From: a virus
DNA: 64,000 bases
Virus record (IMG/VR): IMGVR_UViG_3300024503_000015
Span: 206,182 to 270,181 of that record
Reading direction: 5' to 3' (one strand)
Part shown: in pieces, positions 8,210 to 52,463 of the stretch
How positions within the stretch are numbered: the first letter of the stretch is position 1
Layout of the letters: each line of letters starts with the position of its first letter
Made by a program: the position numbers and the translations under genes
The notes under the pieces: generated by a model
What the model was told of the DNA's origin: nothing
Databases searched by the model: none
Seen by the model: only the letters and a program-made list of their open reading frames with translations

Positions 8210-8218
8210 GGTTTAACA

Positions 8219-18585: not shown

Positions 18586-18887
18586 GACTTCAGTCCTTCT
18601 AACGTTTGACGTTTGGCTTCTTCTTTGACTTCTTGTTTATGAATTGTCTGCAATCCGCGAAACATTTCTTCGACTACATGAATAATAGCATTCTTACCGT
18701 CTTCAGTTAAGTGACTGTATTCAGGACTTACAGTACTTTCGTGCCAGACTCTACCGTTTTGGCTAAGTTCTAGTAATGCTCCATAGAGCATATCCTTGTG
18801 CATACTTCTGCGGATATCAAATTTTCTCGCCACTTTGGAACCCTCTAAAATGTAAGAAGCGCGGAAAGCGTAAAGAGTAACTTCCAT
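18582..18887 (-). CDS. hypothetical protein (start uncertain)
   Basis: The track ORF overlaps the ligase 3' end. Trimmed to an internal Met. Confidence 0.3.
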   Translation of the reverse strand: MEVTLYAFRASYILEGSKVARKFDIRRSMHKDMLYGALLELSQNGRVWHESTVSPEYSHLTEDGKNAIIHVVEEMFRGLQTIHKQEVKEEAKRQTLEGLKS

Positions 18888-20139
18888 CCTGGTTTTGTGT
18901 GATAGCGTCAGCACGTACCTCAACGATTTTGCCAACCACCTCTTCACGACCGGACCAATAAGCATCGCGATCAGCATCAGTAAAACCGCTACCAACATTA
19001 ACAATGATATCACGTCCATCGTCTCTGCCTTCGCAAACAAAAGCGCCAAGTTTTCCGACATTTTTACCTGTTCCTTCTTCTACTGCTGTAACAGCCAATG
19101 ACACTTCGATAAATGGCTTTAGTTTAAGCCAAGCCACACTACGTTTACATTCATATCCAGCATTAGGATCTTTGATCATAATACCTTCGTAACCGCCATC
19201 GATTGCCTTTTGATTAATTTCTTTGAAACGTTTTTTACCTGCATCAGTATCGAGATCGACAAGTTCGTGTCCAACAACTGCTACATTAGGTAACGCATCT
19301 TTATGTTTCTTGTGCCAGTAGTAGACCATATCGCTACGATCCGATTGGCTTTTATCCCAAGAGCCTTGTTCAAAGTTTGACAAAGGTAGTACGTCAAACA
19401 AATTAAGTACAGCATCATCGCTTTGTACATCACTCTTGCGGTGTACCTGCTTCATCAAATCTTGGAAACTGCTAGACATAACTTCGCCGTCTAGCACCAA
19501 ATCATATGGCGGAGGATCTTGTTTAACTACTGCACTAATCTGCTCTGCTATGTGAGGAAAATTGACAAGCTCTTTGCCGTTACGACTAAACATATCAACA
19601 CGCCCGTCGGCCCTGACGATAGTAATAACTCGTACTCCATCAAGTTTGACTTCGATAAGTTTCTTTCCAACCACCTTAGCCTCATGATTTGCGCTATCGT
19701 GAGCGAGCTGGCAACTAAACACAGGCACACTATAGTGAGCATATTTCTTCTCCACAACTTTGTTGATTGTTTTTTCGCTTACGCCACAACGCAAGTCTTT
19801 AATAAGGATACGACGATACCAGCCATTCCACTGTTTCTTAGTGGCTGACTTTATCATTGTTTGAATCATATCCCTCGCTGTATTACCGGTGACATTGCGA
19901 GTGACAAAGCCAGTAATAGCGAGAGTAAAACTGCCCCAGTCTAAGCCTGGACCGTCTGCATCTGTTTTCTCTGGGATTTGTTTAAGTCCAAAGGTAATCA
20001 TTGGATCTAATGCAAGACGCACACCTTCGAAGAATTCGTTGTTACCTGCCTCCGCTTGTGCAAGAATGATTGCTTCTTTGTTCAAACGACTAGGATGATC
20101 TTCTAGTGTACTAATAACATTTTGGCATGGATCGCTCAC
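18817..20139 (-). CDS. ATP-dependent DNA ligase
   Basis: KxDG adenylation motif in IEVKLDGVRV, plus downstream nucleotidyltransferase and OB-fold motifs. Confidence 0.85.
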   Translation of the reverse strand: MSDPCQNVISTLEDHPSRLNKEAIILAQAEAGNNEFFEGVRLALDPMITFGLKQIPEKTDADGPGLDWGSFTLAITGFVTRNVTGNTARDMIQTMIKSATKKQWNGWYRRILIKDLRCGVSEKTINKVVEKKYAHYSVPVFSCQLAHDSANHEAKVVGKKLIEVKLDGVRVITIVRADGRVDMFSRNGKELVNFPHIAEQISAVVKQDPPPYDLVLDGEVMSSSFQDLMKQVHRKSDVQSDDAVLNLFDVLPLSNFEQGSWDKSQSDRSDMVYYWHKKHKDALPNVAVVGHELVDLDTDAGKKRFKEINQKAIDGGYEGIMIKDPNAGYECKRSVAWLKLKPFIEVSLAVTAVEEGTGKNVGKLGAFVCEGRDDGRDIIVNVGSGFTDADRDAYWSGREEVVGKIVEVRADAITQNQDGSYSLRFPRFLHFRGFQSGEKI

Positions 20140-28153: not shown

Positions 28154-28747
28154 TTATTCGTCTTCCCAGGGTACAGGAATCCAACCTAGTTTAAGTAAAT
28201 CTGCTTCTATTTCTTCTGTAACAATGCCTTCGGGCACATATCCTGTACGCTTTTGCCATTGTTCATTAGTTTCTTTAGCATCGTACTCTTGATTAAGTCC
28301 GCCCATACCTGAACAGTACCAATCAATGTAATCACCTTCTTGACGCATATCTGCAACAATGCCGCCAGCACTACGCCAACTAGCACTCCACAAATCTTTG
28401 TCAGGATCTTGTCGCAGATAAGGAAACATTTCTTTACGAACAAAACGCATATTACACATAGCCGCATAAAGATTCTGTGCATAGGCATCGCTGTTACGAA
28501 CCTTGGCTAGAATCCAATCTGTACTACGTAGGTCGTATTCTAAATTATTTTCCTGCCATTCGGGGTTAGACATGTTTTCTTCGTCTTGTTCACGAAAGGT
28601 TTTAAAAAGATTTAAGTAATCTTCTCTAGGCTCTTTACCTTCTTCCGCACAACGTTCGATATATCCGTTTAATTGAAAACTATGACGCTCTGGGCTTGAG
28701 CTTATTTTAACGTTTGTATCCGGTGAATCCGAGTTTTCTGTAGGCAT
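28154..28747 (-). CDS. hypothetical protein
   Basis: 197 aa ORF followed by a strong terminator. Confidence 0.45.
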   Translation of the reverse strand: MPTENSDSPDTNVKISSSPERHSFQLNGYIERCAEEGKEPREDYLNLFKTFREQDEENMSNPEWQENNLEYDLRSTDWILAKVRNSDAYAQNLYAAMCNMRFVRKEMFPYLRQDPDKDLWSASWRSAGGIVADMRQEGDYIDWYCSGMGGLNQEYDAKETNEQWQKRTGYVPEGIVTEEIEADLLKLGWIPVPWEDE

Positions 28748-29240
28748 TACGCACTCCTATAGCCTGTCGTTTAGCATCTTCTAACGCATTGTGTTTTGCA
28801 TCCTGCGGCATTTCAGGATCTGCTAGTTCAAACAATGTACGTGTGTCACGCATTTCCCAGAAGTTCCAAGGATATGCACGACCTAATTTTTCGTAGATAT
28901 TCTGCAAAATCATTAAGTCAAAAGTAGCACCGTGACTCCAAAAATGACTGCACCCCCATGCTAGTGCATGAAACTGATTAATAACTTCATGGATTGGAAT
29001 ACGATCCCTTGGATCAAATGCTTCCTCCATGATGTTAGTATCCTGCTGATTCCACCATTTTAGTGTGTCGTCGCTTACAGTACAACCTAGAGCATCTTGG
29101 CTGTCTATCTCCACACGCAGATAAAGTTCTTTCATGGGTGCATTTGTAAACGGATCAAACCTTACTGCGCCCAAGGTAAGAATAGTTGCTGTAGTCTTTG
29201 TGTCAAGAGTTTCCAAGTCGACCATTAAGTGTTGTGCCAT
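28707..29240 (-). CDS. dexA: DEDDh 3'-5' exonuclease, DexA-like
   Basis: VDLETLDT and ILTLGAV (Exo I) and HNALEDAKRQA (Exo III H-x4-D) motifs. Confidence 0.6.
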   Translation of the reverse strand: MAQHLMVDLETLDTKTTATILTLGAVRFDPFTNAPMKELYLRVEIDSQDALGCTVSDDTLKWWNQQDTNIMEEAFDPRDRIPIHEVINQFHALAWGCSHFWSHGATFDLMILQNIYEKLGRAYPWNFWEMRDTRTLFELADPEMPQDAKHNALEDAKRQAIGVRNAYRKLGFTGYKR

Positions 29241-29606: not shown

Positions 29607-29644
29607 GCTTATGATTATACTATCTTATTAATGTAAAGTCAAGT

Positions 29645-29830
29645 TTACTTCTTGGGTTTATCGTTCGATTCGTCCAAATCGTAGTATTCGTTTTTCATTA
29701 TTGCTTCATCAAACTTTTCTGCATCTGTCTTTTTATTTTTTCGAAAAATGTTATCGTAATTATTACGATAGTTGTCAGTGACTCCTTTGGTTTGAATAGA
29801 GTCGCCTGTGATGTCGTTTCTTGCTACCAT
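29645..29830 (-). CDS. small hypothetical protein
   Basis: 61 aa ORF. Confidence 0.3.
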   Translation of the reverse strand: MVARNDITGDSIQTKGVTDNYRNNYDNIFRKNKKTDAEKFDEAIMKNEYYDLDESNDKPKK

Positions 29831-29866: not shown

Positions 29867-30325
29867 TCAAGTTCTCCAGATTTCCTTAAAGCCTTCGTCT
29901 TCGGTTGGCATTTCAAAAGTATCAATCATGCTACGCATAACTGAATCTGGAATGTTCTTGCCTGGACGACTGGCTAAACGTCGATCCAATTCTTCCTTTT
30001 TAGGAGTTGGAAATACCACAGCAATATGTTCATAGTTAGGCAACATATTGAACTTACGCTTACGGCTCTTAATCGAAACACTGGTCTGATCCCAGATGAT
30101 ATCTAAATTATTTGCCTTACAAATTTCGACTTGGTTAGCCATCAACTTTACGGCAATAGGCATATATTCATCAAAAACTTCGTTGTAGGTTTTACCCATT
30201 TTTTCAGCGTATTCTTCCACAAACTTATCTGTGCTAACCACAGGAATATCCTTAGCCCAGTCTTGATTCTTAATCCAAGTGCTCTTACCTGCACCTGGCA
30301 CTCCGATTAATTGATAACACTTCAT
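29867..30325 (-). CDS. pseT: polynucleotide 5'-kinase (T4 Pnk kinase domain only)
   Basis: LIGVPGAGKSTW P-loop, DIIWDQTSVSIKSRKR and IPDSVMRSMIDTFEMP align with the T4 Pnkp kinase domain. No HAD phosphatase domain is present. Confidence 0.8.
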   Translation of the reverse strand: MKCYQLIGVPGAGKSTWIKNQDWAKDIPVVSTDKFVEEYAEKMGKTYNEVFDEYMPIAVKLMANQVEICKANNLDIIWDQTSVSIKSRKRKFNMLPNYEHIAVVFPTPKKEELDRRLASRPGKNIPDSVMRSMIDTFEMPTEDEGFKEIWRT

Positions 30326-30582
30326 GGTTGAAAGTTGTCCCTTCCTTTTGTATGCTTACTGATTTCGGCTAAGGTTGCCCTTAGCATTTGAATTTCCATT
30401 GCGGCTTCTTCTAACAAGTTAGCAATCTTGTCGGGCTTACCTTCTGTGACTGCTAACCTGCCAGGAATCTGCCTACGTATCTCTGCTCGTTTATACAAGC
30501 GGAACACTAGGCTTTGCTCTGCTACAGGCAAATGACTTTCATCTTCACATCTCATACTGTCTCCATATAGTTGCGTACCCAA
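30322..30582 (-). CDS. hypothetical protein
   Basis: 86 aa ORF between the kinase and ligase genes. Confidence 0.4.
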   Translation of the reverse strand: MGTQLYGDSMRCEDESHLPVAEQSLVFRLYKRAEIRRQIPGRLAVTEGKPDKIANLLEEAAMEIQMLRATLAEISKHTKGRDNFQP

Positions 30583-31436
30583 GATAAACGAGCTTGCTCG
30601 TCCATAGCAGTATACTCCTCAATGTTAGCACGGATAGCATCCACTAGTGGATAGTATTCTTCGTCTAAATTGTGCTTGATGTCTTTGTTCAAGTCTACTA
30701 ACTTGTCTGTGCGTGGATTGCGAGCAACCCACTTTGAAGTCAAGTAGTAAGGTGACTTGATCTTAGAACCAACGCCGTCCTTAGTATAGAATACAAAACC
30801 TTCGTGCTTAACAGTCTTTACTAGAGCCTTTAACTCGCCTACTGTAGTAGTAAAGATATCCACAGGGAGGCATCCAAGATGCTTGCCCAAAGGTTCTAGC
30901 GTAAACTTTTCGTAGTATAACTTACCGTTCCAGTCTTTGTGACGGAATCCGATAAAGTACAGTCCAGGTTCTTCAGGTATGATGTGTGGGTCAGTTGGAT
31001 GAACGCACTCAAACATAAAAGTAAAATCTGGGGCACATCTTAGTACATCACGGAAGTTATCAGTGATATATTCCTTTGCCATATCGACAAACTCGCCTGA
31101 AGTAGAACCTGTTGTTGAAACTAGGATATCTCCATTGTGCCAAGTCATAGCAACCATAAAGCCGTTAACTTTACGAAGTGCTGTGATCTCAGTATCGTCG
31201 GATAGCACTGGTGCTTCCTTTTCAATACCATAGTTATAGATCTTTGTGAATGGTCGTTGTACTACATTAAACTCAGAGTCTACAATAGTACCTCGACATT
31301 CGGCGATGTATTCGTTCCACAAGTTATCGTAGAACACTTTCTTCTTGTACTTTAGCACATAGATACCATCGCCACATTCTTTCATGTTGACTAGGTTACT
31401 AGTGTTTACATACTCCTTCAATTCATCTTTAAACAT
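30552..31436 (-). CDS. rnlA: RNA ligase, T4 Rnl1 (RnlA) family
   Basis: Start trimmed to MFKDEL. ECRGTIV, LRKVNGFMV (KxNG motif I) and FMFECVHPTD parallel T4 Rnl1 ECRGIMF / TKEDGS / FEFVAPTN. Confidence 0.8.
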   Translation of the reverse strand: MFKDELKEYVNTSNLVNMKECGDGIYVLKYKKKVFYDNLWNEYIAECRGTIVDSEFNVVQRPFTKIYNYGIEKEAPVLSDDTEITALRKVNGFMVAMTWHNGDILVSTTGSTSGEFVDMAKEYITDNFRDVLRCAPDFTFMFECVHPTDPHIIPEEPGLYFIGFRHKDWNGKLYYEKFTLEPLGKHLGCLPVDIFTTTVGELKALVKTVKHEGFVFYTKDGVGSKIKSPYYLTSKWVARNPRTDKLVDLNKDIKHNLDEEYYPLVDAIRANIEEYTAMDEQARLSWVRNYMETV

Positions 31437-31977
31437 GATGACCCTTAATTTCGTTGTTTTTAATTCTGCCAATCGCATATTCCATTGACACAACAATCTC
31501 ACCGGTTGAATCCATACCTACATCGAATGCACGATACTTTTCTAATCCACTAACACCTCCGTGTAAGTGACCATGAAAATGTAATGCTCCTCTGTGCATT
31601 TGATCCCACTCAGCAATCGGATAGTGAAACATGACAATCTTGTGACCATCATATGTAATATCCAAATACTCGTGTACTTCTGCAAACGCACCACGGAACG
31701 TTTCGTCCATCAATGTCTTACGGTCATGATTTCCTCTAATTAAAATCTTTGTGCCATTCAAACGCTTTACCATTCTACCAGCATCACTACCTGACATGAA
31801 CGCTACATCGCCTAAGATGTAGACTGTGTCTTCAGGTTTGACTTTATGGTTCCATTCTTCGGCCATGGCGTTGTTCATATATGCAACGTCGTCTTTAAAT
31901 CGTGCTCTCGTCACTGGACAGAACTTCATGATGTTCTTATGTCCAAAGTGTAAGTCGCTTGTAATCCATGTTTTCAT
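31429..31977 (-). CDS. calcineurin-like metallophosphoesterase (candidate RNA 2',3'-end healing phosphatase)
   Basis: Start trimmed to MKTWITSDLHFGH. GDVAF, GNHD and GHLHGG motifs. Overlaps the rnlA start by 8 nt. Confidence 0.7.
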   Translation of the reverse strand: MKTWITSDLHFGHKNIMKFCPVTRARFKDDVAYMNNAMAEEWNHKVKPEDTVYILGDVAFMSGSDAGRMVKRLNGTKILIRGNHDRKTLMDETFRGAFAEVHEYLDITYDGHKIVMFHYPIAEWDQMHRGALHFHGHLHGGVSGLEKYRAFDVGMDSTGEIVVSMEYAIGRIKNNEIKGHHV

Positions 31978-32057
31978 TTTTTCGCTCTTCTTTCTTGTTA
32001 TATTATACAGCCAAAAGAACGCCCTGTCAACTCTCGAAGACAGGGCAAATGTTGTTT

Positions 32058-32525
32058 TTATACAACGGGCTTGTATGTGCGCCAATCGTCGATGTTGGGC
32101 TTTTCGTCCGCATCGTAGGTCCAACCCAAGGCTCGCATCATTCTGTGCTTAACGAGCAGATTAGGGCTTCTAAACCGCCCTGTATCCTGAAAGCCCAGCA
32201 TTACGCCTACTTCGCATACAGCACCGCTACGACAAATTCCAGCAAAACAATGAACAACAACGTTCATTTTGTTATCCAAAGCGTGTTGTAAAAGAGCCAC
32301 AAGTTGATTGGCTTGTTCTTGACTACACTTCATTGCTTCGTCGTCTACGTGGTCGTTTTCCTCCACGTCCAAAAATTCAAAGTTATGAATTTCCTTGAAC
32401 TTATGGGCAGGAGTAGGACGCCAGCTCGCCGGGTCAACGATACTAATCAGCATACTATTTTCGCCTGCTTCGTGATGAAATCTTTTTGGGATATCATCGG
32501 CGGCTACATTTTCAATCCAAGGCAT
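32058..32525 (-). CDS. Cys-based protein-tyrosine / dual-specificity phosphatase
   Basis: HCFAGICRSG CX5R P-loop. Confidence 0.7.
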   Translation of the reverse strand: MPWIENVAADDIPKRFHHEAGENSMLISIVDPASWRPTPAHKFKEIHNFEFLDVEENDHVDDEAMKCSQEQANQLVALLQHALDNKMNVVVHCFAGICRSGAVCEVGVMLGFQDTGRFRSPNLLVKHRMMRALGWTYDADEKPNIDDWRTYKPVV

Positions 32526-33541: not shown

Positions 33542-33616
33542 TGGTCCCGCTACTACGAATCGAACGTAGACTTACTCTTTAGGAGAGAGTCGTTCTATCC
33601 ATTGAACTATAGCGAG
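33542..33616 (-). tRNA. tRNA-Arg (anticodon CCT)
   Basis: Hand-folded cloverleaf. Acceptor CTCGCTA/TAGCGGG, T-arm CTACG-TTCGATT-CGTAG, anticodon loop CTCCTAA, encoded CCA. Confidence 0.6.
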
Positions 33617-33626
33617 GGAGGGAATT

Positions 33627-33734
33627 TGGTGTGACCGGGAGGGTTCGAACCTCCAAGGACGGCATATCGCCTAGTCCCGACCCACGGAGTGTTTCACAAC
33701 AGTCCTGGAGCTCTGCCTATTCGCTCACGGTCAC
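33627..33734 (-). tRNA. atypical 108 nt tRNA-like gene with ~50 nt structured insert in the anticodon/variable region
   Basis: Perfect acceptor GTGACCG/CGGTCAC, D-arm, T-arm GGAGG-TTCGAAC-CCTCC and CCA. Middle has AGGAC...GTCCT enclosing GNRA-capped hairpins. No canonical anticodon loop. Confidence 0.35.
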
Positions 33735-33765
33735 ATACTAAGTATATAACCTTTTCAGCAGTTTG

Positions 33766-34221
33766 TCAACGGGTTATGAGGTATTCGTAGTTCACTGTGT
33801 TGTCGTTTTCTTGCAACACACAGGCACCATTTCTGATATGGAACTTGTAGGCCATTTCAGTTTTTGGGCTAAGTGTTACAAAACGATTAACAGTTGGGAA
33901 AAGTTCTTTTATTTGATCCACTACACCAAAAAGTAGCTCTGCGGCCGCACCCGGCGCATAACTCCAAATTGTATAGAAGATTGCTGTAGTTGGTTCTGTG
34001 GGTGTTTTAGCCAAATCTTCAACAGTTGTTGGCACAAAATCGTGCAGACTAACACAGACCATTGCACGTGGTTTTTCGCCTTCTACAGTGGTGGCGACAA
34101 ATCTGCTACCGCTAACACGAAATTCTTTGGGAATTTCTGGACGTACTGGATCATCCTTGATATAGTCAAGTAATGGATTAGTAGTTTCTCTGATTAATGT
34201 TAGCATATAACTATTTAGCAT
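33766..34221 (-). CDS. hypothetical protein embedded in tRNA array
   Basis: 151 aa ORF between tRNA genes. Confidence 0.45.
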   Translation of the reverse strand: MLNSYMLTLIRETTNPLLDYIKDDPVRPEIPKEFRVSGSRFVATTVEGEKPRAMVCVSLHDFVPTTVEDLAKTPTEPTTAIFYTIWSYAPGAAAELLFGVVDQIKELFPTVNRFVTLSPKTEMAYKFHIRNGACVLQENDNTVNYEYLITR

Positions 34222-34244
34222 TTAGTGGGCAGATTATGGTGTTA

Positions 34245-34319
34245 TGGTGGTAACGGTGAGATTCGAACTCACACCTTGCTCCGTATGAAGGAGGTGCACG
34301 ACCATTATGCTACGTTACC
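34245..34319 (-). tRNA. tRNA-Met (anticodon CAT; Met or lysidine-Ile not distinguishable)
   Basis: Acceptor GGTAACG/CGTTACC, T-arm GTGAG-TTCGAAT-CTCAC, anticodon loop TTCATAC, CCA. Confidence 0.6.
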
Positions 34320-34858
34320 AGATTATTAGTAAGATGTCCCGAGAGTTTTGGTTTGGGTAAGGCCATCCGACGGTGCGATTCGTCCCTCTCTTTGTCTAGC
34401 CCAACATGAAGTTCTTGTAGTCTCAATCCGCTCACCTTGCACCGGCGCTTGATACATATACTCTACAGCATTAAAGTTTATAACTTCAATTAACAAAAAC
34501 TTCCGATCTTTGTTAACTCCTTGCGGATGCTTTTAGAACCTTAACTACTTACTAATAAAAGGGGTGGAGAGAGAAAGGCAAGTAATAGACTGGACAATGT
34601 ACAAGCGGGCTCTATAAAGATACCCTTAACAAGTCACAAGGCGCAAAGCACAGGGACCTGTATATTTCCAGTTAGCAACTCACAAAGTCGATTAATATAT
34701 AGAACTGGTTCACACAAGCACGAAACGTTTTCAAGACGTTTTGCCAGTAGTTGATGTTCGGTCTCTATAAGAGATCAAACCTTAGGCATGTAGCCTAAGT
34801 CTGTCTATCCTAATCTCCTTCTCTACTCCAGGCTCGGGCTTTCGCCTTTGCCAAAACT

Positions 34859-34932
34859 TGGTTGCGGGACCTGGAATCGAACCAGGATCTAGAGCTTATG
34901 AGACTCTTGAGTTACCGTTTCTCTATCCCGCG
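34859..34932 (-). tRNA. tRNA-Met (anticodon CAT) with C1-A72 mismatch, initiator-like
   Basis: Acceptor CGCGGGA/TCCCGCA with an unpaired 1-72, anticodon stem-loop AGAGT-CTCATAA-GCTCT, T-arm CCTGG-TTCGATT-CCAGG, CCA. Confidence 0.55.
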
Positions 34933-35269
34933 ATAACTTTATAGGTGCTCTCTGTTCGACTCGAACGAAACCTGCTGAGCTCCTTATCTTCCTGGCACTT
35001 TCGGTGGGTAGTCGACTTAGCACCTAACTCGTGTTATCCAGTGTAGTTCAGCTCAGAGAGCATTTATAAAGTGTCTAGCCACTCCCACCACAGGAGCCCT
35101 AAACCGAGCTGTTACTCTGTCCACTAGCCTTTCCATTTAGACGGTGCTGAGGTCCGCCTTTGTGATTTCTCAAGTCGCTTTAAACAAGCCTTGCGGTAGA
35201 TCCAATGCACCGAGCCATTAAGGTGTAGCAATTACCTAACTCTATCACGCTGAGTTAACGCGGGGTCTG

Positions 35270-35842
35270 TTACAGTAAACCTTCTGCTTGCAGAACTGCT
35301 TCTGTTTTGTCAGACAATTGGATAGTTGTCTGAACATTTAACTCTAGGATTTCATCCTGAAGTTTTTGTTTCTGCTTTTTAGCAGTTGCCACTCTACGAC
35401 GGAATCCGTCTAGATCTTCACGAGTGAGCACACTAGTGTCTACTGTGTCGTTGTAGCCATAGATGCTACGACGGTTTTCGCTTTTGTCGTTACGGATCTT
35501 GTCCAAACGACCTGCTACAACCTTTGCGCTTTCGCGAACGGTCTTACTAGCCAATCCGTTGTAGAATTGGATTTGTTTTTCTAGATGTGCAACATCGGCC
35601 AATCTAGTGTCGATTCTAACTTCTGTGTTAGCACCGCTGACACTTTTACGAATCTCGTAAAGTGCTTCCACTAACGCATCTCTGCGTGTAAGGTTGTCGC
35701 AGAGTGTTCCTGCAACTTTGGAAATTTCTTGTTCCGCTTCTTGGAACTCGTTGATTTTTACTGTGGTCTCAAACTGGAAACCTTTGACGGTATCGTTGAT
35801 ACTGTTCTGAAGTGCATTTGCCTTACGTAGGGAGATATTCAT
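35270..35842 (-). CDS. hypothetical coiled-coil protein
   Basis: Trimmed to ATG 35842 so it does not overlap tRNA-Gly. Confidence 0.45.
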   Translation of the reverse strand: MNISLRKANALQNSINDTVKGFQFETTVKINEFQEAEQEISKVAGTLCDNLTRRDALVEALYEIRKSVSGANTEVRIDTRLADVAHLEKQIQFYNGLASKTVRESAKVVAGRLDKIRNDKSENRRSIYGYNDTVDTSVLTREDLDGFRRRVATAKKQKQKLQDEILELNVQTTIQLSDKTEAVLQAEGLL

Positions 35843-35908
35843 TTGTTTTTCCTTTAATGTTTCTATTATACAATCTTTTAAATCTAAATCAATGCCTTTT
35901 GGCAAAAC

Positions 35909-35984
35909 TGGAGCGGGAGACGAGGTTCGAACTCGCGACATTTACCTTGGCAAGGTAATGCTCTACCAACTGAGCTACTCCCGC
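35909..35984 (-). tRNA. tRNA-Gly (GCC)
   Basis: GCGGGAG/CTCCCGC, D-arm GCTCAGTTGGTAGAGC, anticodon TTACC-TTGCCAA-GGTAA, CCA. Confidence 0.7.
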
Positions 35985-36032
35985 ATATGAAGAACCTAAG
36001 GCAAAGTTTATAACTTATCCAAAGGCCATATA

Positions 36033-36108
36033 TGGTACACGGTACGGGAATCGAACCCGTCTTACTGACGTGAAAGGCCAGTGTCCTAAACCGATAGACG
36101 AACCGTGC
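36033..36108 (-). tRNA. tRNA-Glu (TTC)
   Basis: Acceptor GCACGGT/ACCGTGT, anticodon loop CTTTCAC, T-arm ACGGG-TTCGATT-CCCGT, CCA. Confidence 0.65.
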
Positions 36109-36114
36109 ATTACT

Positions 36115-36190
36115 TGGCTCCCCAGGGTGGGATCGAACCACCGACACCCTGATTAACAGTCAGGTGCTACTACCGCTGAGCTACTAGGGA
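36115..36190 (-). tRNA. tRNA-Asn (GTT)
   Basis: TCCCTAG/CTGGGGA, anticodon loop CTGTTAA, T-arm GGTGG-TTCGATC-CCACC, CCA. Confidence 0.7.
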
Positions 36191-36197
36191 ATAAACT

Positions 36198-36272
36198 TGG
36201 TACCTGGTGACAGTTTCGAACTGCCGACCCTCTCGGTGTAAACGAGACGCTCTACCACTGAGCTAACCAGGC
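36198..36272 (-). tRNA. tRNA-Val (TAC)
   Basis: GCCTGGT/ACCAGGT, anticodon loop TTTACAC, CCA. Confidence 0.7.
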
Positions 36273-36282
36273 AAACTAACAT

Positions 36283-36359
<77 letters not shown>

Positions 36360-36364
36360 AATGA

Positions 36365-36440
36365 TGGAGCGGGAGGCGAGAGTTGAACTCGTCTATTTCA
36401 GTTTGGAAGACTGACGTGTAACCACAAACACTTCACCCGC
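36365..36440 (-). tRNA. tRNA-Gly (TCC)
   Basis: GCGGGTG/CTCCCGC (one mismatch), anticodon TCAGT-CTTCCAA-ACTGA, CCA. Confidence 0.6.
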
Positions 36441-36446
36441 ATATTT

Positions 36447-36530
36447 TGGTGCCCCAGGAGAGACTCGAACTCTCACGGCTCTCGCCACTGGCTTCTAAGA
36501 CCAGCGTGTCTACCATTCCACCACCAGGGC
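36447..36530 (-). tRNA. tRNA-Leu (TAG), type II
   Basis: Anticodon loop CTTAGAA, 13 nt variable arm, T-arm GAGAG-TTCGAGT-CTCTC, CCA. Confidence 0.65.
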
Positions 36531-36531
36531 A

Positions 36532-37335
36532 TTAACTGACAATACTATTTAAGTATTCCTGAATTGTCGTTGCAATTTTTTCTTGCACAGACAATTTAAT
36601 TTTTGCATTCTCACCATTAGCACTCATATACTGTTTTCCGTATTCAGTACAATCTATACCAGTGTGCATAAACTCTTTAAAAATTTCTGAGTTGTCAGGA
36701 TTAGGATCTCCAAACCTAACAGTCGTCCATTTAATATTTTGAGAATCTAAAAACTTAATTAACATATTGTAACCATTTCTATGTCTACGAATATGCCAAT
36801 CTTTGCTTTGACTTTTTTGAAAAGCAATACCGTTTAATCGCTTTTTATGAACTTCAATTGGATATCTATCTGGATTCCATTCTCCGTCTACATAATTTTC
36901 ACGTTCAAATACATATCGTTGATTGTTATATTTGAAACTGTGTGCTATATGACTAAACGTGTAATCTGTAACTAATACATGATCCGGTTTAGGATTCTCT
37001 GCTAGGTACTGTTTTAATCTTTTGTGATGACCTATAAAATGTCCACCGTTAATAGATATATTAACTACATTGGAAACATTTAAGAAATTAGGCCATGCGG
37101 CTTTTTGTTCTTCTTCCCATAGATAATGCCAAACAACATTTTCCATATTGCCATTGGGCATAGGTGTTGTAACATTGTTTTCTTTTCTATGTTTTAGATA
37201 CCATTTAAAAACACTTCTAAAATCATTATGGAAACGTAGACTCCAAGTCCTCGGAGCATCGTCGTTGACTATGTCACCAGCCAAACAATTATTGCCATTA
37301 CTTTGGCAATCTCCTAAAATTAAAAGTGTTTTCAT
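36532..37335 (-). CDS. hypothetical protein embedded in tRNA array
   Basis: 267 aa ORF. LLILGDCQSNG N-terminus, possibly SGNH-like. Confidence 0.5.
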   Translation of the reverse strand: MKTLLILGDCQSNGNNCLAGDIVNDDAPRTWSLRFHNDFRSVFKWYLKHRKENNVTTPMPNGNMENVVWHYLWEEEQKAAWPNFLNVSNVVNISINGGHFIGHHKRLKQYLAENPKPDHVLVTDYTFSHIAHSFKYNNQRYVFERENYVDGEWNPDRYPIEVHKKRLNGIAFQKSQSKDWHIRRHRNGYNMLIKFLDSQNIKWTTVRFGDPNPDNSEIFKEFMHTGIDCTEYGKQYMSANGENAKIKLSVQEKIATTIQEYLNSIVS

Positions 37336-37349
37336 ATTAATAGTTATCT

Positions 37350-37426
37350 TGGCGCACCGTAGGGGACTTGAACCCCTGGCCTCCGACGTGACAGGCCGGC
37401 GCTCTGACCAACTGAGCTAACGGTGC
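37350..37426 (-). tRNA. tRNA-Asp (GTC)
   Basis: GCACCGT/ACGGTGC, anticodon CCGGC-CTGTCAC-GTCGG, T-arm AGGGG-TTCAAGT-CCCCT, CCA. Confidence 0.7.
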
Positions 37427-37564
37427 AAATTCTATTCTGAAACACACTAACCAACTACCAGAAGCATTTATAATGCCGTTATTCGGTTCGAGCTAATGTG
37501 TTTTAGAATAGTGCTAACGCTGAGATTATACGTTAGCCAATAGTGCCTCTAGCATTATAGTCAG

Positions 37565-37798
37565 CCTTGCGAGCCAACCTTCTCTAGACATCCACATAAG
37601 CCATTACTGTACCTATGTCCACTATCAGCATCGCCGTTTTTAAAGACAGGCAGTAGTCTTGTCGCCATATGCTATTCTACGCTATCTACTCCGTTGACCT
37701 TGCGAGCCATTCAGCGGCGCTAACCACTTACGAAACTTCCAGCATAAACAGATTTCACCTTGCGAGCTACGTCTGACTCGATTACCTTGCGGCTCGAG
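37565..37798. repeat. four dispersed copies of CCTTGCGAGC(C) motif in an ORF-free spacer
   Basis: Copies at 37565, 37698, 37758 and 37785. Related CCTTGCGG copies at 34521, 35180 and 38183. Confidence 0.5.
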
Positions 37799-37844
37799 TA
37801 TTAGATGCTTTTCACATATGACCGAGGCAGTCTTTGCATTTTAT

Positions 37845-37916
37845 AATCGATAGTTGGGATCGAACCAACAGTCCATTGCTTAAGAGGCAATTGCGTTACC
37901 ATTACGCTATATCAAA
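37845..37916 (-). tRNA. tRNA-Lys (CTT)
   Basis: Anticodon ATTGC-CTCTTAA-GCAAT, T-arm GTTGG-TTCGATC-CCAAC. No encoded CCA. First acceptor pair weak. Confidence 0.55.
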
Positions 37917-38566
37917 CCTACCGCGATGAGCTGCCTCTGTTGCTCAATAACCTTTTGGATTACTGAATACAACTCACCACATACCTTTTGTCTCGCGGAC
38001 TACTCAGTGATATTTCACGATCAATGTCCTGCATCAAAACAGTCCACTAACCATTAATATTGCATACAAGCCCTTAGGAGCGACCCCTTGGACAAATACA
38101 CTACCCTTTCTCATACCAATTCGCAAGTTGGTTTTGTTAGGAAGTCAGCACCACCCGTTACTTTTCATGCACCCTGGTTCCCTTGCGGGCCAGTCGATAC
38201 ACATTCTTTCCCTAACACTTGCTTCATTGTTACATCCACCGGTCTTCTCAGTGAACGCTACCTCGCGGTAGTGAGCAGGCTTGTTTACATGAACCATTAC
38301 TGGCGGAGTTGCGTAGGCTTACCTCCTTTGGGTTGATCACTCAACTTATTCTTCGTCAACGGCGAACCGCCAACAGGATAATAAACTACCCTTAAATTTT
38401 TACCATTAAAAAATAACATTACACCCTATGGGATGAAACGTATTTCTGAGTGGAGTTCGATTCTCCTCATAAGCCATTGTTCACGGTTTTCTCAGAAGGG
38501 TAAGATGGCCTTATCCTTCATAAGTCTATGCGTCCATAGACGATACCCGTCAATGCTATTTCTTAA

Positions 38567-38652
38567 TGGTGGATGCGGCTGGAGTCGAACCAGCAGTGCC
38601 GTAAGGCGGCGGATTTACAGTCCACTGGGGTTACCAATTTTCCTACACATCC
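38567..38652 (-). tRNA. tRNA-Tyr (GTA), type II
   Basis: GGATGTG/CGCATCC, anticodon GTGGA-CTGTAAA-TCCGC, long variable arm, CCA. Confidence 0.6.
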
Positions 38653-38739
38653 ATATCTGCTTGAAATTTTTAAAGAACTAGGTTAATTTCTTAACTAGTC
38701 TCTATTGTATATGAACTTTAGAAACTAGTCAAGACATTT

Positions 38740-38834
38740 TGGCAGTGAGTAAGGGATTCGAACCCTTGATCCCCGTTTTTGCAGGAATGCCTTCTTAGCA
38801 GGAAGGTGCCTTCGACCAGCTCGGCCAACTCACT
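38740..38834 (-). tRNA. tRNA-Ser (GCT), type II
   Basis: AGTGAGT/ACTCACT, anticodon CCTTC-CTGCTAA-GAAGG, long variable arm, CCA. Confidence 0.65.
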
Positions 38835-38878
38835 ATATTTGTATTATACGATCAACTGTTAAACAAGTCAACACCTTT

Positions 38879-38968
38879 TGGCCGAAGCGGTGAGATTCGA
38901 ACTCACGGACCCTTTCGGATCGTCTGTTTTCAAGACAGGTGCAATAAACCGGACTCTGCCACGCTTCG
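38879..38968 (-). tRNA. tRNA-Ser (TGA), type II
   Basis: CGAAGCG/CGCTTCG, anticodon CCTGT-CTTGAAA-ACAGA, long variable arm, CCA. Confidence 0.65.
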
Positions 38969-39014
38969 TTGTTTTACTTGTATAATTCGTTGTAGATAGA
39001 ATCTGCTACAAATG

Positions 39015-39092
39015 TGGTACCCCTGCTCCGATTCGAACGGAGAGAACTTCTCCTTTTGAGAGAGACGACTTTACCAATTTGTCCACAGGGGT
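39015..39092 (-). tRNA. tRNA with anticodon CAA (Leu-decoding) but short type-I variable loop
   Basis: ACCCCTG/CAGGGGT, anticodon TCTCT-CTCAAAA-GGAGA, 6 nt variable loop, CCA. Identity uncertain. Confidence 0.45.
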
Positions 39093-39097
39093 ATATC

Positions 39098-39171
39098 TGG
39101 TGCTCAAGGAAAGAATCGAACTTTCGATTGTGTCGTACCAAGACACTGGTATACCATTTACCTACAAGAGC
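39098..39171 (-). tRNA. tRNA-Thr (GGT)
   Basis: Anticodon GTGTC-TTGGTAC-GACAC. Acceptor stem has two U-U mismatches. CCA. Confidence 0.5.
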
Positions 39172-39173
39172 CT

Positions 39174-39245
39174 TGGCGCCTCTGAGTAGATTCGAACTAC
39201 TATAACCTGGTTTAGAAGACCTGGCACTGCTCCATCAGCAGAGGC
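39174..39245 (-). tRNA. tRNA-Arg (TCT)
   Basis: GCCTCTG/CAGAGGC, anticodon loop CTTCTAA with one A-A mismatch in the stem, CCA. Confidence 0.5.
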
Positions 39246-39246
39246 A

Positions 39247-39323
39247 TGGTACCCTTGGTTGGATTCGAACCTACACACAACGGATTTTAAATCCATTCGC
39301 ATTACCAATTAGCGTACAAGGGC
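39247..39323 (-). tRNA. tRNA with anticodon TAA (Leu-decoding) but type-I architecture
   Basis: GCCCTTG/CAAGGGT, anticodon ATGGA-TTTAAAA-TCCGT, 5 nt variable loop, CCA. Confidence 0.45.
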
Positions 39324-39330
39324 ATAATTA

Positions 39331-39406
39331 TGGTGCCGCCCCTTGGGATCGAACCAAGTTCCTCGGTGCTTCAAACCGGTGCAATGACCACATTTGCTAA
39401 AGCGGC
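39331..39406 (-). tRNA. tRNA-Phe (GAA)
   Basis: GCCGCTT/GGGCGGC (G-U pairs), anticodon loop TTGAAGC, T-arm CTTGG-TTCGATC-CCAAG, CCA. Confidence 0.6.
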
Positions 39407-39412
39407 GATATT

Positions 39413-39487
39413 TGGGGTGAAGCCGGGAATCGAACCCTGCCTTACTGTTTCACAGACAGCCGTGCGGACCACTACACTAGCAACACC
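39413..39487 (-). tRNA. tRNA-His (GTG) with extra 5' G-1
   Basis: G-1:C73 pair, anticodon GCTGT-CTGTGAA-ACAGT. Acceptor has two U-U mismatches. Confidence 0.6.
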
Positions 39488-39489
39488 AT

Positions 39490-39566
39490 TGGCCGGCCCT
39501 GAGAGACTCGAACTCCCAACCTCCAGTTTCGAAGACTGGCACTCTAATCCATTGAGTTAAGGACCG
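39490..39566 (-). tRNA. tRNA-Arg (TCG)
   Basis: CGGTCCT/AGGGCCG, anticodon CCAGT-CTTCGAA-ACTGG, CCA. Confidence 0.6.
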
Positions 39567-39573
39567 TTAAAAT

Positions 39574-39647
39574 TGGCAGGCCTACCAGGACTCGAACCTG
39601 GAACGACTGAGTCAAAGTCAGTTGTGTTACCATTACACCATAGGCCA
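39574..39647 (-). tRNA. tRNA-Gln (TTG)
   Basis: Anticodon ACTGA-CTTTGAC-TCAGT, T-arm CCAGG-TTCGAGT-CCTGG, weak 1-72 pair, CCA. Confidence 0.6.
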
Positions 39648-39873
39648 ACAGATTGAATTTGTAAGTAGTTGCCCCATCGTTATAGCAACCATTCACCCAT
39701 GTATATAAAGCCGGCTGGGACTCGGTACGTCACTTGGGATACTAGTCCAGTTAGCAACCAATCTGCAGGGATCTTCCGATCCCCCGGGAGTTGAACCCGT
39801 CCCCTTTTACTATTAAGGTAGTTCGAACTTACCTACAATAGCGTGACATTCTCTTGCTGACACTTACAAAACT

Positions 39874-39946
39874 TGGTGCCCCAGGATGGAATCGAACCAC
39901 CACACCCTGCTTACAAAACAGGACCTCTACCACTAAGGATACAAGG
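39874..39946 (-). tRNA. tRNA-Thr (TGT)
   Basis: GCCCTTG/CTGGGGC, anticodon CCTGT-TTTGTAA-GCAGG, CCA. Confidence 0.6.
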
Positions 39947-39953
39947 GCAAAAT

Positions 39954-40031
39954 TGGTCTCCACGGTACGATTCGAACGTACAGCCTCCTGACTCCAGATC
40001 AGGCCGTCTACCAGATTGACATTACGCAGAG
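39954..40031 (-). tRNA. tRNA of uncertain identity (loop TCTGGAG, C at position 33)
   Basis: Good acceptor CTCTGCG/CGTGGAG and T-arm GTACG-TTCGAAT-CGTAC with CCA. Anticodon loop is non-canonical. Confidence 0.35.
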
Positions 40032-40041
40032 ATAAAAATAA

Positions 40042-40117
40042 TTGCGACCGAAGGACTCGAACCTTCGCGGTAATCTAGAATGCCCCGGCAAGGCCGGTTA
40101 ACCCACCATTGTCGCAA
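40042..40117 (-). tRNA. tRNA-like element whose anticodon arm is replaced by a 5 bp/3 nt hairpin
   Basis: Perfect acceptor TTGCGAC/GTCGCAA, D-arm and T-arm CGAAGG-TTCGAGT-CCTTCG. Middle CCGGC-CTT-GCCGG hairpin. No CCA. Confidence 0.35.
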
Positions 40118-40120
40118 ATT

Positions 40121-40195
40121 TGGTGGAGGCCGAGGAAATCGAATCCTTCTAGACATCTTCCTTGCAAGGGAAGACCGTAGCCCACTACTGCCCCC
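40121..40195 (-). tRNA. tRNA-Ala-like (TGC) with truncated D-arm and degenerate T-arm
   Basis: Anticodon CTTCC-CTTGCAA-GGAAG, T-loop TTCGATT with a stem mismatch, D region only 12 nt, CCA. Confidence 0.35.
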
Positions 40196-40280
40196 AAATT
40201 GGTGTTAGTTTCTATACCACCCATTGAAACTAACAAACATTGAGAGAACATGGATGAACCCACAAGATCTCTATTTGCTC

Positions 40281-40355
40281 TGGTATAGCGTACGGGGATC
40301 GAACCCGCCTAGTCACCTTGAAAGGGTGATGACCTCCCCAGAAGTCGAACGCTAT
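40281..40355 (-). tRNA. tRNA-Glu (TTC), second copy
   Basis: ATAGCGT/ACGCTAT, anticodon TCACC-CTTTCAA-GGTGA, CCA. Confidence 0.55.
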
Positions 40356-40361
40356 GTAAAT

Positions 40362-40435
40362 TGGTTCCTGGACCGAGAATTGAACTCAGAATGACCGGTT
40401 ATCAGCCGATTGTTATACCATTTAACTATCCAGGA
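40362..40435 (-). tRNA. tRNA-Ile (GAT)
   Basis: TCCTGGA/TCCAGGA, anticodon ATCGG-CTGATAA-CCGGT, CCA. Confidence 0.65.
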
Positions 40436-40617
40436 ATAATACTATACAAAAAGAAACTAACGACAATGCGCTATGCACCCAGAGTCTATAGTTCCTGGCT
40501 GTGGTTAGTTTGTTTTTATACACTACCATATGGAAGCACTCTTATGCCTTTTTCGTCATAAGATGGTGGCCCGTCCTTACTACTGACGCTATGCGACCAG
40601 TTAAGAATGCTTTCATA

Positions 40618-40692
40618 TGGTAGGGGCACAGAGAATCGAACTCTGATTTACGGGTTAAAAGCCCGCTACTTTAACCATTAAGTTATACCCCC
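40618..40692 (-). tRNA. tRNA-Lys (TTT)
   Basis: GGGGGTA/TGCCCCT, anticodon GCGGG-CTTTTAA-CCCGT, CCA. Confidence 0.65.
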
Positions 40693-40695
40693 ATA

Positions 40696-40771
40696 TGGTC
40701 CCTGCTGTGAGATTCGAACTCACACCTCATTGATTAAGAGTCAAGTGCGCTACCATTGACGCTAAACAGGG
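40696..40771 (-). tRNA. tRNA-Lys (CTT), second copy
   Basis: CCCTGTT/AGCAGGG, anticodon loop CTCTTAA, T-arm GTGAG-TTCGAAT-CTCAC, CCA. Confidence 0.5.
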
Positions 40772-40942
40772 TTGTACGTATTGATTTGATTTTACGTGCC
40801 AACCCTAGACCATACGGGAGATCTAGAGTGACACTAACGTTTAGCACGTTTCATGCTACTCTCCTTTTAATATTTTTTCAAAACTTGATACAACACGAAC
40901 ATTATAACTAACACTACAAGTACTGCCATAATATTCTCCTTA

Positions 40943-41032
40943 TGGTCCCCCGTTGAGGAATCGAACCTCATCCTGGACCTTATCTAGATTAATCGGTTAT
41001 AAGCCGACCTGCTCTCCATGAGCTAACGGGGG
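40943..41032 (-). tRNA. type II (long variable arm) tRNA with anticodon TAT
   Basis: Perfect acceptor CCCCCGT/ACGGGGG, anticodon GTCGG-CTTATAA-CCGAT, ~21 nt variable arm, CCA. Confidence 0.45.
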
Positions 41033-41040
41033 ATATAACC

Positions 41041-41118
41041 TGGAGCAACGGGTCAGATTTGAACTGACGGTTTTACGGATTTGCAATCCGTTGCATTGGG
41101 CCTCTCTGCCACCGTTGC
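41041..41118 (-). tRNA. tRNA-Cys (GCA)
   Basis: GCAACGG/CCGTTGC, anticodon ACGGA-TTGCAAA-TCCGT, T-arm GTCAG-TTCAAAT-CTGAC, CCA. Confidence 0.65.
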
Positions 41119-41123
41119 ATTAT

Positions 41124-41198
41124 TGGCGTACCCCCAGGGACTCGAACCCCGACTAGCAGTTTTGGAGACTGTCGTGCTGCCATTAACACTAGGGATAC
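41124..41198 (-). tRNA. tRNA-Trp (CCA)
   Basis: GTATCCC/GGGGTAC, anticodon loop CTCCAAA, CCA. Confidence 0.65.
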
Positions 41199-46321: not shown

Positions 46322-46395
46322 TGGTGCGCTAGACAGGAATCGAACCTGCTATCGGGAGTTTAGAAGTCCCTGCCTATCCATTGAGCTTCAAGCGC
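46322..46395 (-). tRNA. isolated tRNA, best fold gives anticodon CTA (amber-suppressor-like); alternative register TCT
   Basis: Acceptor GCGCTTG/CTAGCGC, T-arm GCAGG-TTCGATT-CCTGT, CCA. Anticodon stem GGGA/TCCC with loop TTCTAAA. Confidence 0.4.
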
Positions 46396-52104: not shown

Positions 52105-52135
52105 AATAAAAAAGGGCCCGAAGGCCCTTTGGTTG
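52105..52135 (-). terminator. rho-independent terminator (second copy of GGGCCCGAAGGCCC hairpin)
   Basis: Hairpin followed by TTTTTTATTTT on the minus strand. Confidence 0.55.
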
Positions 52136-52395
52136 TTTGGGTTACAAGGTAAGTCCTACCCCGGAGTTGCAGTTTCTTAGGCTGCTACTAGACCATTGTC
52201 GGCTGTGAAGCCTTCAACAGTGAAGTACTCAAATGTAGATGCGTTTGCATTTACTAGTTTTGCTTGATTTACGGTCATCGCCTACCGTGTTGCCGTCTCT
52301 ACTATCTACCCCTGTCGAAACCATGGCAGGCCCATCATAAAAACACAATACCAAAGTAAATTTACAATGAATACCAAAGTAAATTTATGTCCTTA

Positions 52396-52435
52396 TGGTG
52401 GACCTGGCGGGAGTCGAACCCGCGTCCAGAAGTCC
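52396..52435 (-). other. tRNA 3'-half-like minihelix (T-arm + acceptor + CCA) lacking D and anticodon arms
   Basis: GCGGG-TTCGACT-CCCGC T-arm, then CAGGTCC-A-CCA, with a complementary GGACTTC only 5 nt upstream. Confidence 0.3.
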
Positions 52436-52463
52436 TTCGCTTTGAAGGGATTACAACAATTCT

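Follow-up and report, generated by a model that had tools for sequence, protein, structure and literature searches.

Which proteins might heal and seal broken RNA in a large phage whose polynucleotide kinase carries no phosphatase domain? The question is raised by a cluster of small genes near the tRNA array in a 64,000-nt stretch of viral DNA, here called the window, which covers positions 206,182 to 270,181 of the IMG/VR record IMGVR_UViG_3300024503_000015. All genes of this module lie on the minus strand, between window positions 29867 and 32525. A preliminary description of the DNA had named four proteins at this locus, a kinase, an RNA ligase, a metallophosphoesterase (MPE) and a CX5R cysteine phosphatase; all four were found, and the coordinates it gave for their genes are exact. 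We consider it probable, at roughly two chances in three, that the operon is an early-expressed phage system for RNA end healing and end sealing, which would do the job of T4 Pnkp and Rnl1 by means of separate proteins. The direct basis for this reading is the gene structure, a promoter match, family and fold assignments, the conservation of catalytic residues, and gene linkage.

Gene order and transcription signals

In the direction of transcription, the locus comprises the CX5R gene, a hairpin, a promoter, the genes for the MPE and the ligase, an open reading frame (ORF) of 77 aa, the kinase gene, a 61-aa ORF, and the next promoter. The operon promoter (32030..32002) matches the sigma-70 consensus at 12 of 12 positions (TTGACA-17 nt-TATAAT) and lies 25 nt upstream of the MPE start codon. 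The MPE, 182 aa from its ATG (31977..31429), is followed by the Rnl1-type ligase, 294 aa from its ATG (31436..30552), the ligase start overlapping the MPE stop by 8 nt. A small conserved ORF of 77 aa (30555..30322) stands between the ligase and a stand-alone P-loop kinase of 152 aa (30325..29867), and 4-nt overlaps of the form ATGA join it to the genes on either side. This arrangement marks the four operon genes as translationally coupled. On near-identical metagenomic contigs, gene callers give the same genes of 182, 77, 152 and 61 aa. The preliminary description had spoken of three adjacent overlapping genes; the overlap is real, but the genes number four, the 77-aa ORF having been missed.

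The CX5R phosphatase gene (155 aa, 32525..32058) had been described as following the other genes. It is present, but it comes first in transcription, where it is preceded by a good AAGGAGG ribosome-binding site. Between it and the operon stands a stable hairpin (32047..32020) with a 9-bp stem followed by the U-rich run GUUCUUUUGG. The predicted stability of the hairpin is -19.5 kcal/mol (z = -3.76 relative to shuffled sequences), and its 3′ arm holds the -35 hexamer of the operon promoter. Because this hairpin and the promoter separate the CX5R gene from the operon, the gene is best treated as an upstream transcription unit of its own, for which the hairpin is probably the intrinsic terminator. 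At the other end, the 61-aa ORF (29830..29645) is 100% conserved in the close relatives L007–L010 and is possibly the last gene of the operon transcript; the next strong promoter follows at 29642..29614.

Four sigma-70 promoters with 11 or 12 of 12 matches occur within 4.2 kb of the minus strand (33769–33741, 33540–33512, 32030–32002 and 29642–29614), with a short group of small genes behind each. Such a run of promoters points to strong early transcription, carried out by the unmodified RNA polymerase of the host. Shortly after the operon, in the direction of transcription, an Rv2179c-like 3′–5′ exoribonuclease is encoded (PF16473, 5e-38; 28707–29240, minus strand), and its position is kept in close relatives.

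Family assignments and catalytic residues

The kinase belongs to the Pfam family AAA_33 (PF13671, E = 9e-17) and to the PHROG family annotated as polynucleotide kinase (phrog_505, 7.5e-9). Among NCBIfam models, it matches TIGR04075, the kinase region of bacterial Pnkp (4.3e-7), and also L-seryl-tRNA(Sec) kinase (PSTK). Its family profile retrieved nine entries of the Protein Data Bank (PDB) with E-values up to ~0.01, all of them polynucleotide or tRNA kinases (PSTK, Capnocytophaga Pnkp1, T4 Pnk, C. thermocellum Pnk and mammalian PNKP). The AlphaFold model (pLDDT 89.7) has PNKP, the C. thermocellum Pnkp kinase, fungal Trl1-type kinases, PSTK and T4 Pnkp as its best Foldseek matches, with TM-scores of 0.77 to the C. 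thermocellum kinase (4gp7) and 0.72 to T4 Pnkp (2ia5). The Walker A motif GxxxxGK[ST] reads G8-VPGAGKS-T16, and its residues are invariant or nearly so among 28 homologues. Asp33 is invariant and aligns in HMMER alignments with an Asp of Capnocytophaga Pnkp1 and with T4 Asp35, the catalytic residue that activates the 5′-OH in polynucleotide kinase. The lid arginines R116 and R120, also invariant, align to the region of T4 Arg122 and Arg126.

The kinase ends at residue 152, with no fused C-terminal HAD (DxDxT) 3′-phosphatase domain. When the 64-kb window was searched with the HAD domain of T4 PseT, the best tblastn E-value was 3.2, and there was neither a phmmer match nor an ORF with a DxDxT motif. 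The preliminary description had allowed for the case that the kinase ORF is a truncated pseudogene of a full Pnkp. It is not, because the best 120 of its 6643 homologues are all 152 to 160 aa long. By sequence and model, it is a genuine stand-alone polynucleotide-kinase-like protein, for which we propose a role as an RNA 5′-OH kinase. Its earlier designation as a stand-alone T4 Pnk domain with no HAD phosphatase holds as to the domain being separate and the HAD being absent from the window. The likeness to T4 in particular does not hold: the protein appears at least as near to the kinases of C. thermocellum Pnkp and mammalian PNKP as to T4 Pnk, and the T4 residue Arg38, discussed below, has no equivalent. 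A role as PSTK, the top sequence match, was rejected, since the protein has no PSTK C-terminal tRNA-binding domain and its context is RNA repair.

The ligase falls within phrog_562, the T4 gp63/Rnl1 family (2.8e-50), and matches TIGR02308 at 6.7e-8, where its 32 bits fall far short of the equivalog cut-off of 242. Its family profile, compared with the PDB, found only T4 Rnl1 (2c5u/5tt6/9do4; 7.5e-9), over the nucleotidyltransferase domain. This match needed the family profile; the single sequence gave none in a phmmer search of the PDB. No Pfam family matches the protein itself, and PF09511 is recorded for many of its relatives at ~70% identity. The nucleotidyltransferase residues of T4 Rnl1 are the motif I Lys, Arg54, Lys75, Glu159, Glu227-Gly228, Lys240 and Lys242. 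Aligned to T4 Rnl1, the window ligase presents R48, K65, K89 (motif I, K89-VNG), E143, E212-G213, K225 and K227, all of them invariant. A highly conserved tail of ~60 aa takes the place of the T4_Rnl1_C domain. These features characterize the protein as a short Rnl1-type ATP-dependent RNA ligase and agree with its earlier placement in the Rnl1 family. Homologues occur in 766 cultured-phage records.

The window is 90 to 100% identical in nucleotide sequence to contig L008 over 6 kb, except in the ligase core (31310–30736), where identity is 52 to 76%. Across the clade of related phages described below, the ligase has two hypervariable patches, residues 121–135 and 166–210, with 32 to 45% pairwise identity, as against 72 to 97% in the remainder. 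Because near-identical phages diverge there alone and the two patches are hypervariable, the ligase core is best read as a mosaic exchanged by intragenic recombination. A separate ATP-dependent DNA ligase is encoded ~10 kb from the operon (18817–20139, minus strand).

The MPE matches the calcineurin-type family PF00149 (2.6e-7; 31.7 bits, cut-off 21.5) and phrog_547 (8e-55), which has homologues in 1656 cultured-phage records. It contains all five metal-binding motifs, DxH (D8/H10), GD (G56-D57), GNH[DE] (G82-N83-H84-D85), H (H118) and GHxH (G136-H137/H139), and these are invariant in 31 sequences. The motifs bear out its original naming as a calcineurin-type metallophosphoesterase, and its gene is translationally coupled to that of the ligase. 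We propose that it heals RNA ends bearing a 2′,3′-cyclic phosphate or a 3′-phosphate. The further claim that the phosphatase is supplied in trans by a binuclear-metal enzyme, as in bacterial Pnkp/Hen1, stands as to the coupled binuclear MPE but not as to kinship. The protein matches Aquifex aq_1665 (PDB 1xm7) and not the Pnkp/Hen1 phosphatase, whose domain is of the lambda-phosphatase-like type, so that the likeness is an analogy at the level of the superfamily only.

The CX5R protein passes the cut-off of PF22785, of the DSP-PTPase family (29.1 bits, cut-off 27), and matches PF00782 at 6.2e-7 (29.7 bits, cut-off 33.5). Its motif HCFAGICRSG conforms to the family loop HCxAGxCRSGA, and in the segment H92-C93-FAGIC-R99-S100 the four numbered residues are invariant. 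PDB matches are confined to the P-loop region of dual-specificity and protein tyrosine phosphatases. Its identification as a CX5R Cys-phosphatase in the preliminary description is thus sound. It is a cysteine phosphatase of the dual-specificity type and possibly serves as an accessory 3′/2′-phosphomonoesterase; whether it belongs to the repair module is uncertain.

Basic and acidic residues mark the conserved helical core of the 77-aa protein (RLRKRAEIRRQI...EGKPDxIAxLLEEAAxEIExL). The protein matched nothing in Pfam, PHROG, NCBIfam or the PDB, and its family comprises 1381 representative clusters in a library of 1.8 billion proteins. Homologues that are 52 to 63% identical over the core occur, with no RNA ligase nearby, in the Caulobacter phage BL47, the Limnohabitans phage DC31 and the Myxococcus phage Mx1 (L104–L106). 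In DC31, the neighbors of the homologue are a 5′–3′ exonuclease-like gene on one side and an endonuclease VII gene on the other. The family was accordingly rejected as a constant companion of the ligase, its neighbors in these three phages being unrelated or DNA-metabolism genes. Homology to the small ORFs at the same position in ACP17 and Ceto was also rejected (hhalign probability 0.2% for both). A role for the 77-aa protein in the repair module is unproven.

Gene linkage and genomic setting

Linkage was surveyed in 80 IMG/VR loci found through the ligase, with counts taken from the 22 loci whose flanks reach at least 5 kb on either side. Most of the 80 belong to one clade, with ligases 66 to 72% identical; these are jumbo phages, since the contigs reach 330 to 370 kb. 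The 3-kb region had no megablast match among 50,697 phage records, and the window phage is, judging by its sequence, a member of an abundant clade seen in metagenomes only. Within 5 kb of the ligase and on the same strand, the MPE and the 77-aa gene are found in all 22 loci (the latter mostly downstream of the ligase), the CX5R gene in 20 and the kinase in 16, the kinase being the most mobile member of the module. The module genes occur in six different orders among these loci, and because the linkage survives such re-ordering, the genes appear to be functionally connected. Over the ~80 related contigs as a whole, the set of ligase, MPE and kinase comes back in at least five gene orders. tRNA genes are present in 49 of the 80 loci.

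The linkage extends to cultured phages of unrelated lineages, namely Demerecviridae, Stephanstirmvirinae, Pakpunavirus and Busanvirus, the T4-like phage Cr30, and BUCT-ZZ01. Homologues of the ligase and the MPE lie near each other in every cultured-phage locus inspected, at a distance of ~3 kb or less in ACP17, RSP15, Ceto, phi92, PaoP5 and BUCT-ZZ01. In the Caulobacter phage Cr30, a full-length Rnl1 is directly followed by a kinase 41% identical to that of the window. The freshwater cyanophage BUCT-ZZ01 encodes on one strand an Rnl1, directly after it a related kinase, an MPE homologue 0.85 kb downstream, and a CX5R homologue 6 kb further on. In Acidovorax phage ACP17, Ralstonia phage RSP15, Vibrio phage Ceto, phi92 and Pseudomonas phage PaoP5, the kinase beside the ligase is an AAA_33 protein of a different subfamily, which looks like non-orthologous displacement in a fixed functional slot. 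Because the linkage is kept across so many phages, a joint role in healing and sealing is well supported.

Relatives of the window kinase also sit in other RNA-repair settings. In Campylobacter phage CP21 (CP21_070), such a relative is fused to an HD domain in the HD-Pnk architecture. In Xanthomonas phage XacN1 (L095, locus 7977–11051), a stand-alone kinase 37% identical to that of the window is followed by a protein with Hen1_N and methyltransferase domains and then by a protein with a PNKP_ligase domain (annotated in the record as 'metallophosphoesterase'), a group that amounts to a split operon of the Pnkp/Hen1 type in a jumbo phage. Together with Cr30 and BUCT-ZZ01, these make three independent RNA-repair settings for the kinase relatives. 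In T4 itself, rnlA and pseT lie 1.4 kb apart on one strand. The arrangement in the window does differ from that of T4, as the preliminary description had noted, but it is not unusual: with 766 records for ligase homologues and 1656 for those of the MPE, it is common in large phages.

The window contains 32 tRNA genes according to ARAGORN (31 according to Rfam) and a transfer-messenger RNA (tmRNA), all on the minus strand. In the main array, 31 tRNA genes and an embedded GOLLD RNA span 33542..41198 (ARAGORN, Rfam); the array is upstream of the CX5R gene, from which the nearest tRNA is 1.0 kb away. The earlier estimate of about 35 adjoining tRNAs was thus right about a nearby array and too high in number. 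The GOLLD RNA is full length (RF02032; 37517–37980; 207 bits against a gathering threshold of 150; model positions 1–416). It encloses a tRNA-Lys(ctt) gene (37844–37917), lies ~5 kb from the repair operon, and fits a freshwater jumbo phage. A lone tRNA with anticodon CTA (46322–46395; Rfam tRNA score 38 bits), which would read the amber stop codon and which ARAGORN labels 'Pyl', lies 5 kb past the main array.

The tmRNA (~52107–52549) matches the Betaproteobacteria model RF01850 at 129 bits and the permuted model RF04321 at 138 bits; ARAGORN gives its tag peptide as ANASTFEYFTVEGFTADNGLVAA. Because of these models and because the best cultured-phage relatives are Acidovorax, Variovorax and Ralstonia phages, there are hints that the host is betaproteobacterial. 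A 683-aa protein (58827–60878, minus strand) combines a CHASE2 sensor (7e-37) with an adenylate/guanylate cyclase domain (8e-14). Searches of the window for Rnl2, HD_4, the HD domain of HD-Pnk, a NinI-like phosphatase and the alternative AAA_33 subfamily returned nothing beyond the genes already known. The Hen1 and PNKP_ligase proteins of XacN1, used as queries, had no match in the window, and HD, HAD and 2H genes were likewise not found there. No additional RNA-repair gene emerged when 29 other ORFs of the window were scanned with Pfam.

Candidate pathway, alternatives and known systems

In the pathway that we favor, the MPE would convert a cyclic or 3′-phosphate end to a 3′-OH, possibly with help from the upstream CX5R phosphatase, which may remove the monoester. 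The 152-aa kinase would place a phosphate on the 5′-OH, and the 294-aa Rnl1-type ligase, acting through Lys89-AMP, would join the 3′-OH to the 5′-phosphate. The substrates may be cut tRNAs or other RNAs; expression would be early, from a host-type promoter, beside the 32-tRNA array.

Several points weigh against this pathway, in which what each enzyme does, which RNA it acts on and in what order are all inferred. T4 Arg38, three residues past the catalytic Asp, contacts the 3′-phosphate of the acceptor nucleotide; the window kinase has Val36 at the aligned position, and this Val is invariant in its family. The ligase likewise lacks an equivalent of T4 Lys119 in the motif Ia region, where it has Thr109 within an invariant TTGST segment. 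Also absent from it is the T4_Rnl1_C domain (PF20819), which is tied to tRNA specificity, and a query with the T4 C-domain matches nothing in the window. In 6 of the 22 loci the kinase lies away from the ligase, and one kinase of 83% identity adjoins rIIB instead. The negative result for HAD, like those for HD and 2H, covers a 64-kb window of a genome of ~330 to 370 kb. The MPE is the least secure element, since none of its characterized relatives is an RNA-end phosphatase: its nearest relatives (MJ0936, LpxH, YfcE, Mre11/SbcD and the P. putida nuclease MPE) are phosphodiesterases, pyrophosphatases or nucleases, and it has a weak NCBIfam match (3.7e-5) to PdeM, a ligase-associated DNA-repair nuclease. 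All or part of the 3′-end step could fall to the CX5R protein or to an enzyme whose gene lies beyond the window.

It is conceivable, though we think it unlikely, that the kinase and ligase repair RNA while the MPE is not the 3′-end phosphatase. That step would then fall to the CX5R protein or to an HAD, HD or 2H enzyme encoded elsewhere, and the MPE would be an end-trimming nuclease or a cyclic-nucleotide phosphodiesterase. The nature of the nearest MPE relatives and the PdeM match fit this account, as do the CX5R gene linked to the ligase in 20 of 22 loci and the HD_4 proteins in the same neighborhoods of L014, ACP17, RSP15 and phiN3. However, the MPE is translationally coupled to the ligase and is its most constant neighbor, in 22 of 22 loci and in all cultured phages inspected, and the window yielded none of the HD, HAD or 2H genes. 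Moreover, other binuclear MPEs, those of C. thermocellum Pnkp and lambda phosphatase, are known to be 2′,3′-cyclic phosphodiesterases (PMC3675462).

A rather improbable elaboration of the healing-and-sealing pathway divides the 3′-end step between two unrelated phosphatases, with the aq_1665-like MPE opening the 2′,3′-cyclic phosphate and the CX5R protein removing the resulting monoester. On this reading, the variable patches of the ligase would also be the mark of an arms race against host factors or of a shifting specificity for RNA substrates. If this division of labor were true, it would provide a first function for the phage MPE family, which is present in more than 1600 phage genomes, and for the orphan aq_1665.

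That the module acts on DNA ends, at nicks or gaps with 5′-OH and 3′-phosphate termini, in replication or repair rather than on RNA seems very unlikely to us. T4 Pnkp and mammalian PNKP do work on DNA too, the MPE bears a weak resemblance to PdeM, which acts in DNA repair, and in other phages the 77-aa protein has homologues encoded amid genes of DNA metabolism (5′–3′ exonuclease, endonuclease VII). Nevertheless, the ligase matches the RNA ligase family Rnl1 only, the window has its separate ATP-dependent DNA ligase at 18817–20139, and the module adjoins a tRNA array, with tRNAs in 49 of the 80 related loci. Finally, it is highly improbable that these genes share no pathway and lie together only because unrelated early genes have been inherited in the same order. 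Most of the 80 loci do come from a single jumbo-phage clade, and small early genes with strong promoters of their own succeed one another in this region, but the linkage outlives repeated re-ordering within that clade and recurs in unrelated lineages, in some of which the AAA_33 kinase is non-orthologous.

If the activities of the healing-and-sealing proteins were shown, thousands of phage genes now called "ATPase", "phosphoesterase" or "hypothetical" could be annotated, and the joint travel of repair genes and large tRNA arrays would be explained. The system is found in tractable cultured phages, including phi92, PaoP5, Vibrio phage Ceto, Cr30 and ACP17.

In outline, the idea is not new. Iyer et al. 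(2021; PMC7824862) describe jumbo-phage RNA repair as a matter of Rnl1 and Rnl2 ligases, polynucleotide kinases and phosphatases, with calcineurin-like phosphatases predicted among them. The passages of that article consulted here contain no description of the specific operon, the aq_1665-like MPE family, the 77-aa partner or the CX5R linkage. Our literature searches found no biochemical work on the trio of stand-alone kinase, MPE and short Rnl1 or on the cultured-phage groups. The system is widespread and already predicted in outline, and nothing seen of it here contradicts current understanding. Aquifex aeolicus aq_1665 (PDB 1xm7) is a structural-genomics protein with no assigned function and offers no functional guidance.

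Among characterized systems, C. thermocellum Pnkp/Hen1 (PMC3675462) shares with the window module a P-loop polynucleotide kinase, which is the closest fold match (TM 0.77), and a binuclear MPE for 3′-end healing. It differs in having the three activities fused in one protein, a PNKP_ligase-type ligase, and a Hen1 methyltransferase partner; in the window, the proteins are separate, the ligase is of the Rnl1 type, and no Hen1 was found. The end-healing architecture of the HD-Pnk and ligase cluster of Runella slithyformis has been characterized (Munir and Shuman 2017, as cited in PMC6097658). That cluster, too, joins a Pnk-type kinase with a phosphoesterase that depends on metal, and its ligase ORF is an overlapping one. 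In Runella, however, the phosphoesterase is fused to the kinase as an HD domain, whereas that of the window is an unfused MPE, with no HD gene found there.

The groups of genes in Cr30, BUCT-ZZ01, ACP17, RSP15, Ceto, phi92 and PaoP5 resemble that of the window in their AAA_33 kinase beside the ligase and in their homologous ligase and MPE genes, often with genes for tRNA, NAD salvage or nucleotide metabolism near by. Those of Cr30 and BUCT-ZZ01 differ in a full-length Rnl1 with its C-terminal domain (the Cr30 Rnl1 matches PF20819), and the other five in the AAA_33 subfamily of their kinase.

tRNA-cleaving defenses, among them PrrC, RloC, PARIS, Cas13, retron effectors and Schlafens, are now seen as common, and to our knowledge T4 Pnkp (PseT) with Rnl1 (RnlA) is the only well-studied repair answer of a phage. 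The window module is like it in having an Rnl1-family ligase, a kinase of the polynucleotide-kinase fold and a one-strand gene cluster, and in its presumed purpose, the undoing of host RNA cleavage. It departs from T4 in that the kinase is a separate protein of 152 aa with neither the HAD DxDxT motif nor an equivalent of Arg38, the ligase has neither T4_Rnl1_C nor an equivalent of Lys119, and the candidate phosphatase is a binuclear MPE. The operon would therefore represent a different and apparently far more widespread solution than that of T4, built from a stand-alone kinase, a small aq_1665-like MPE and a short Rnl1.

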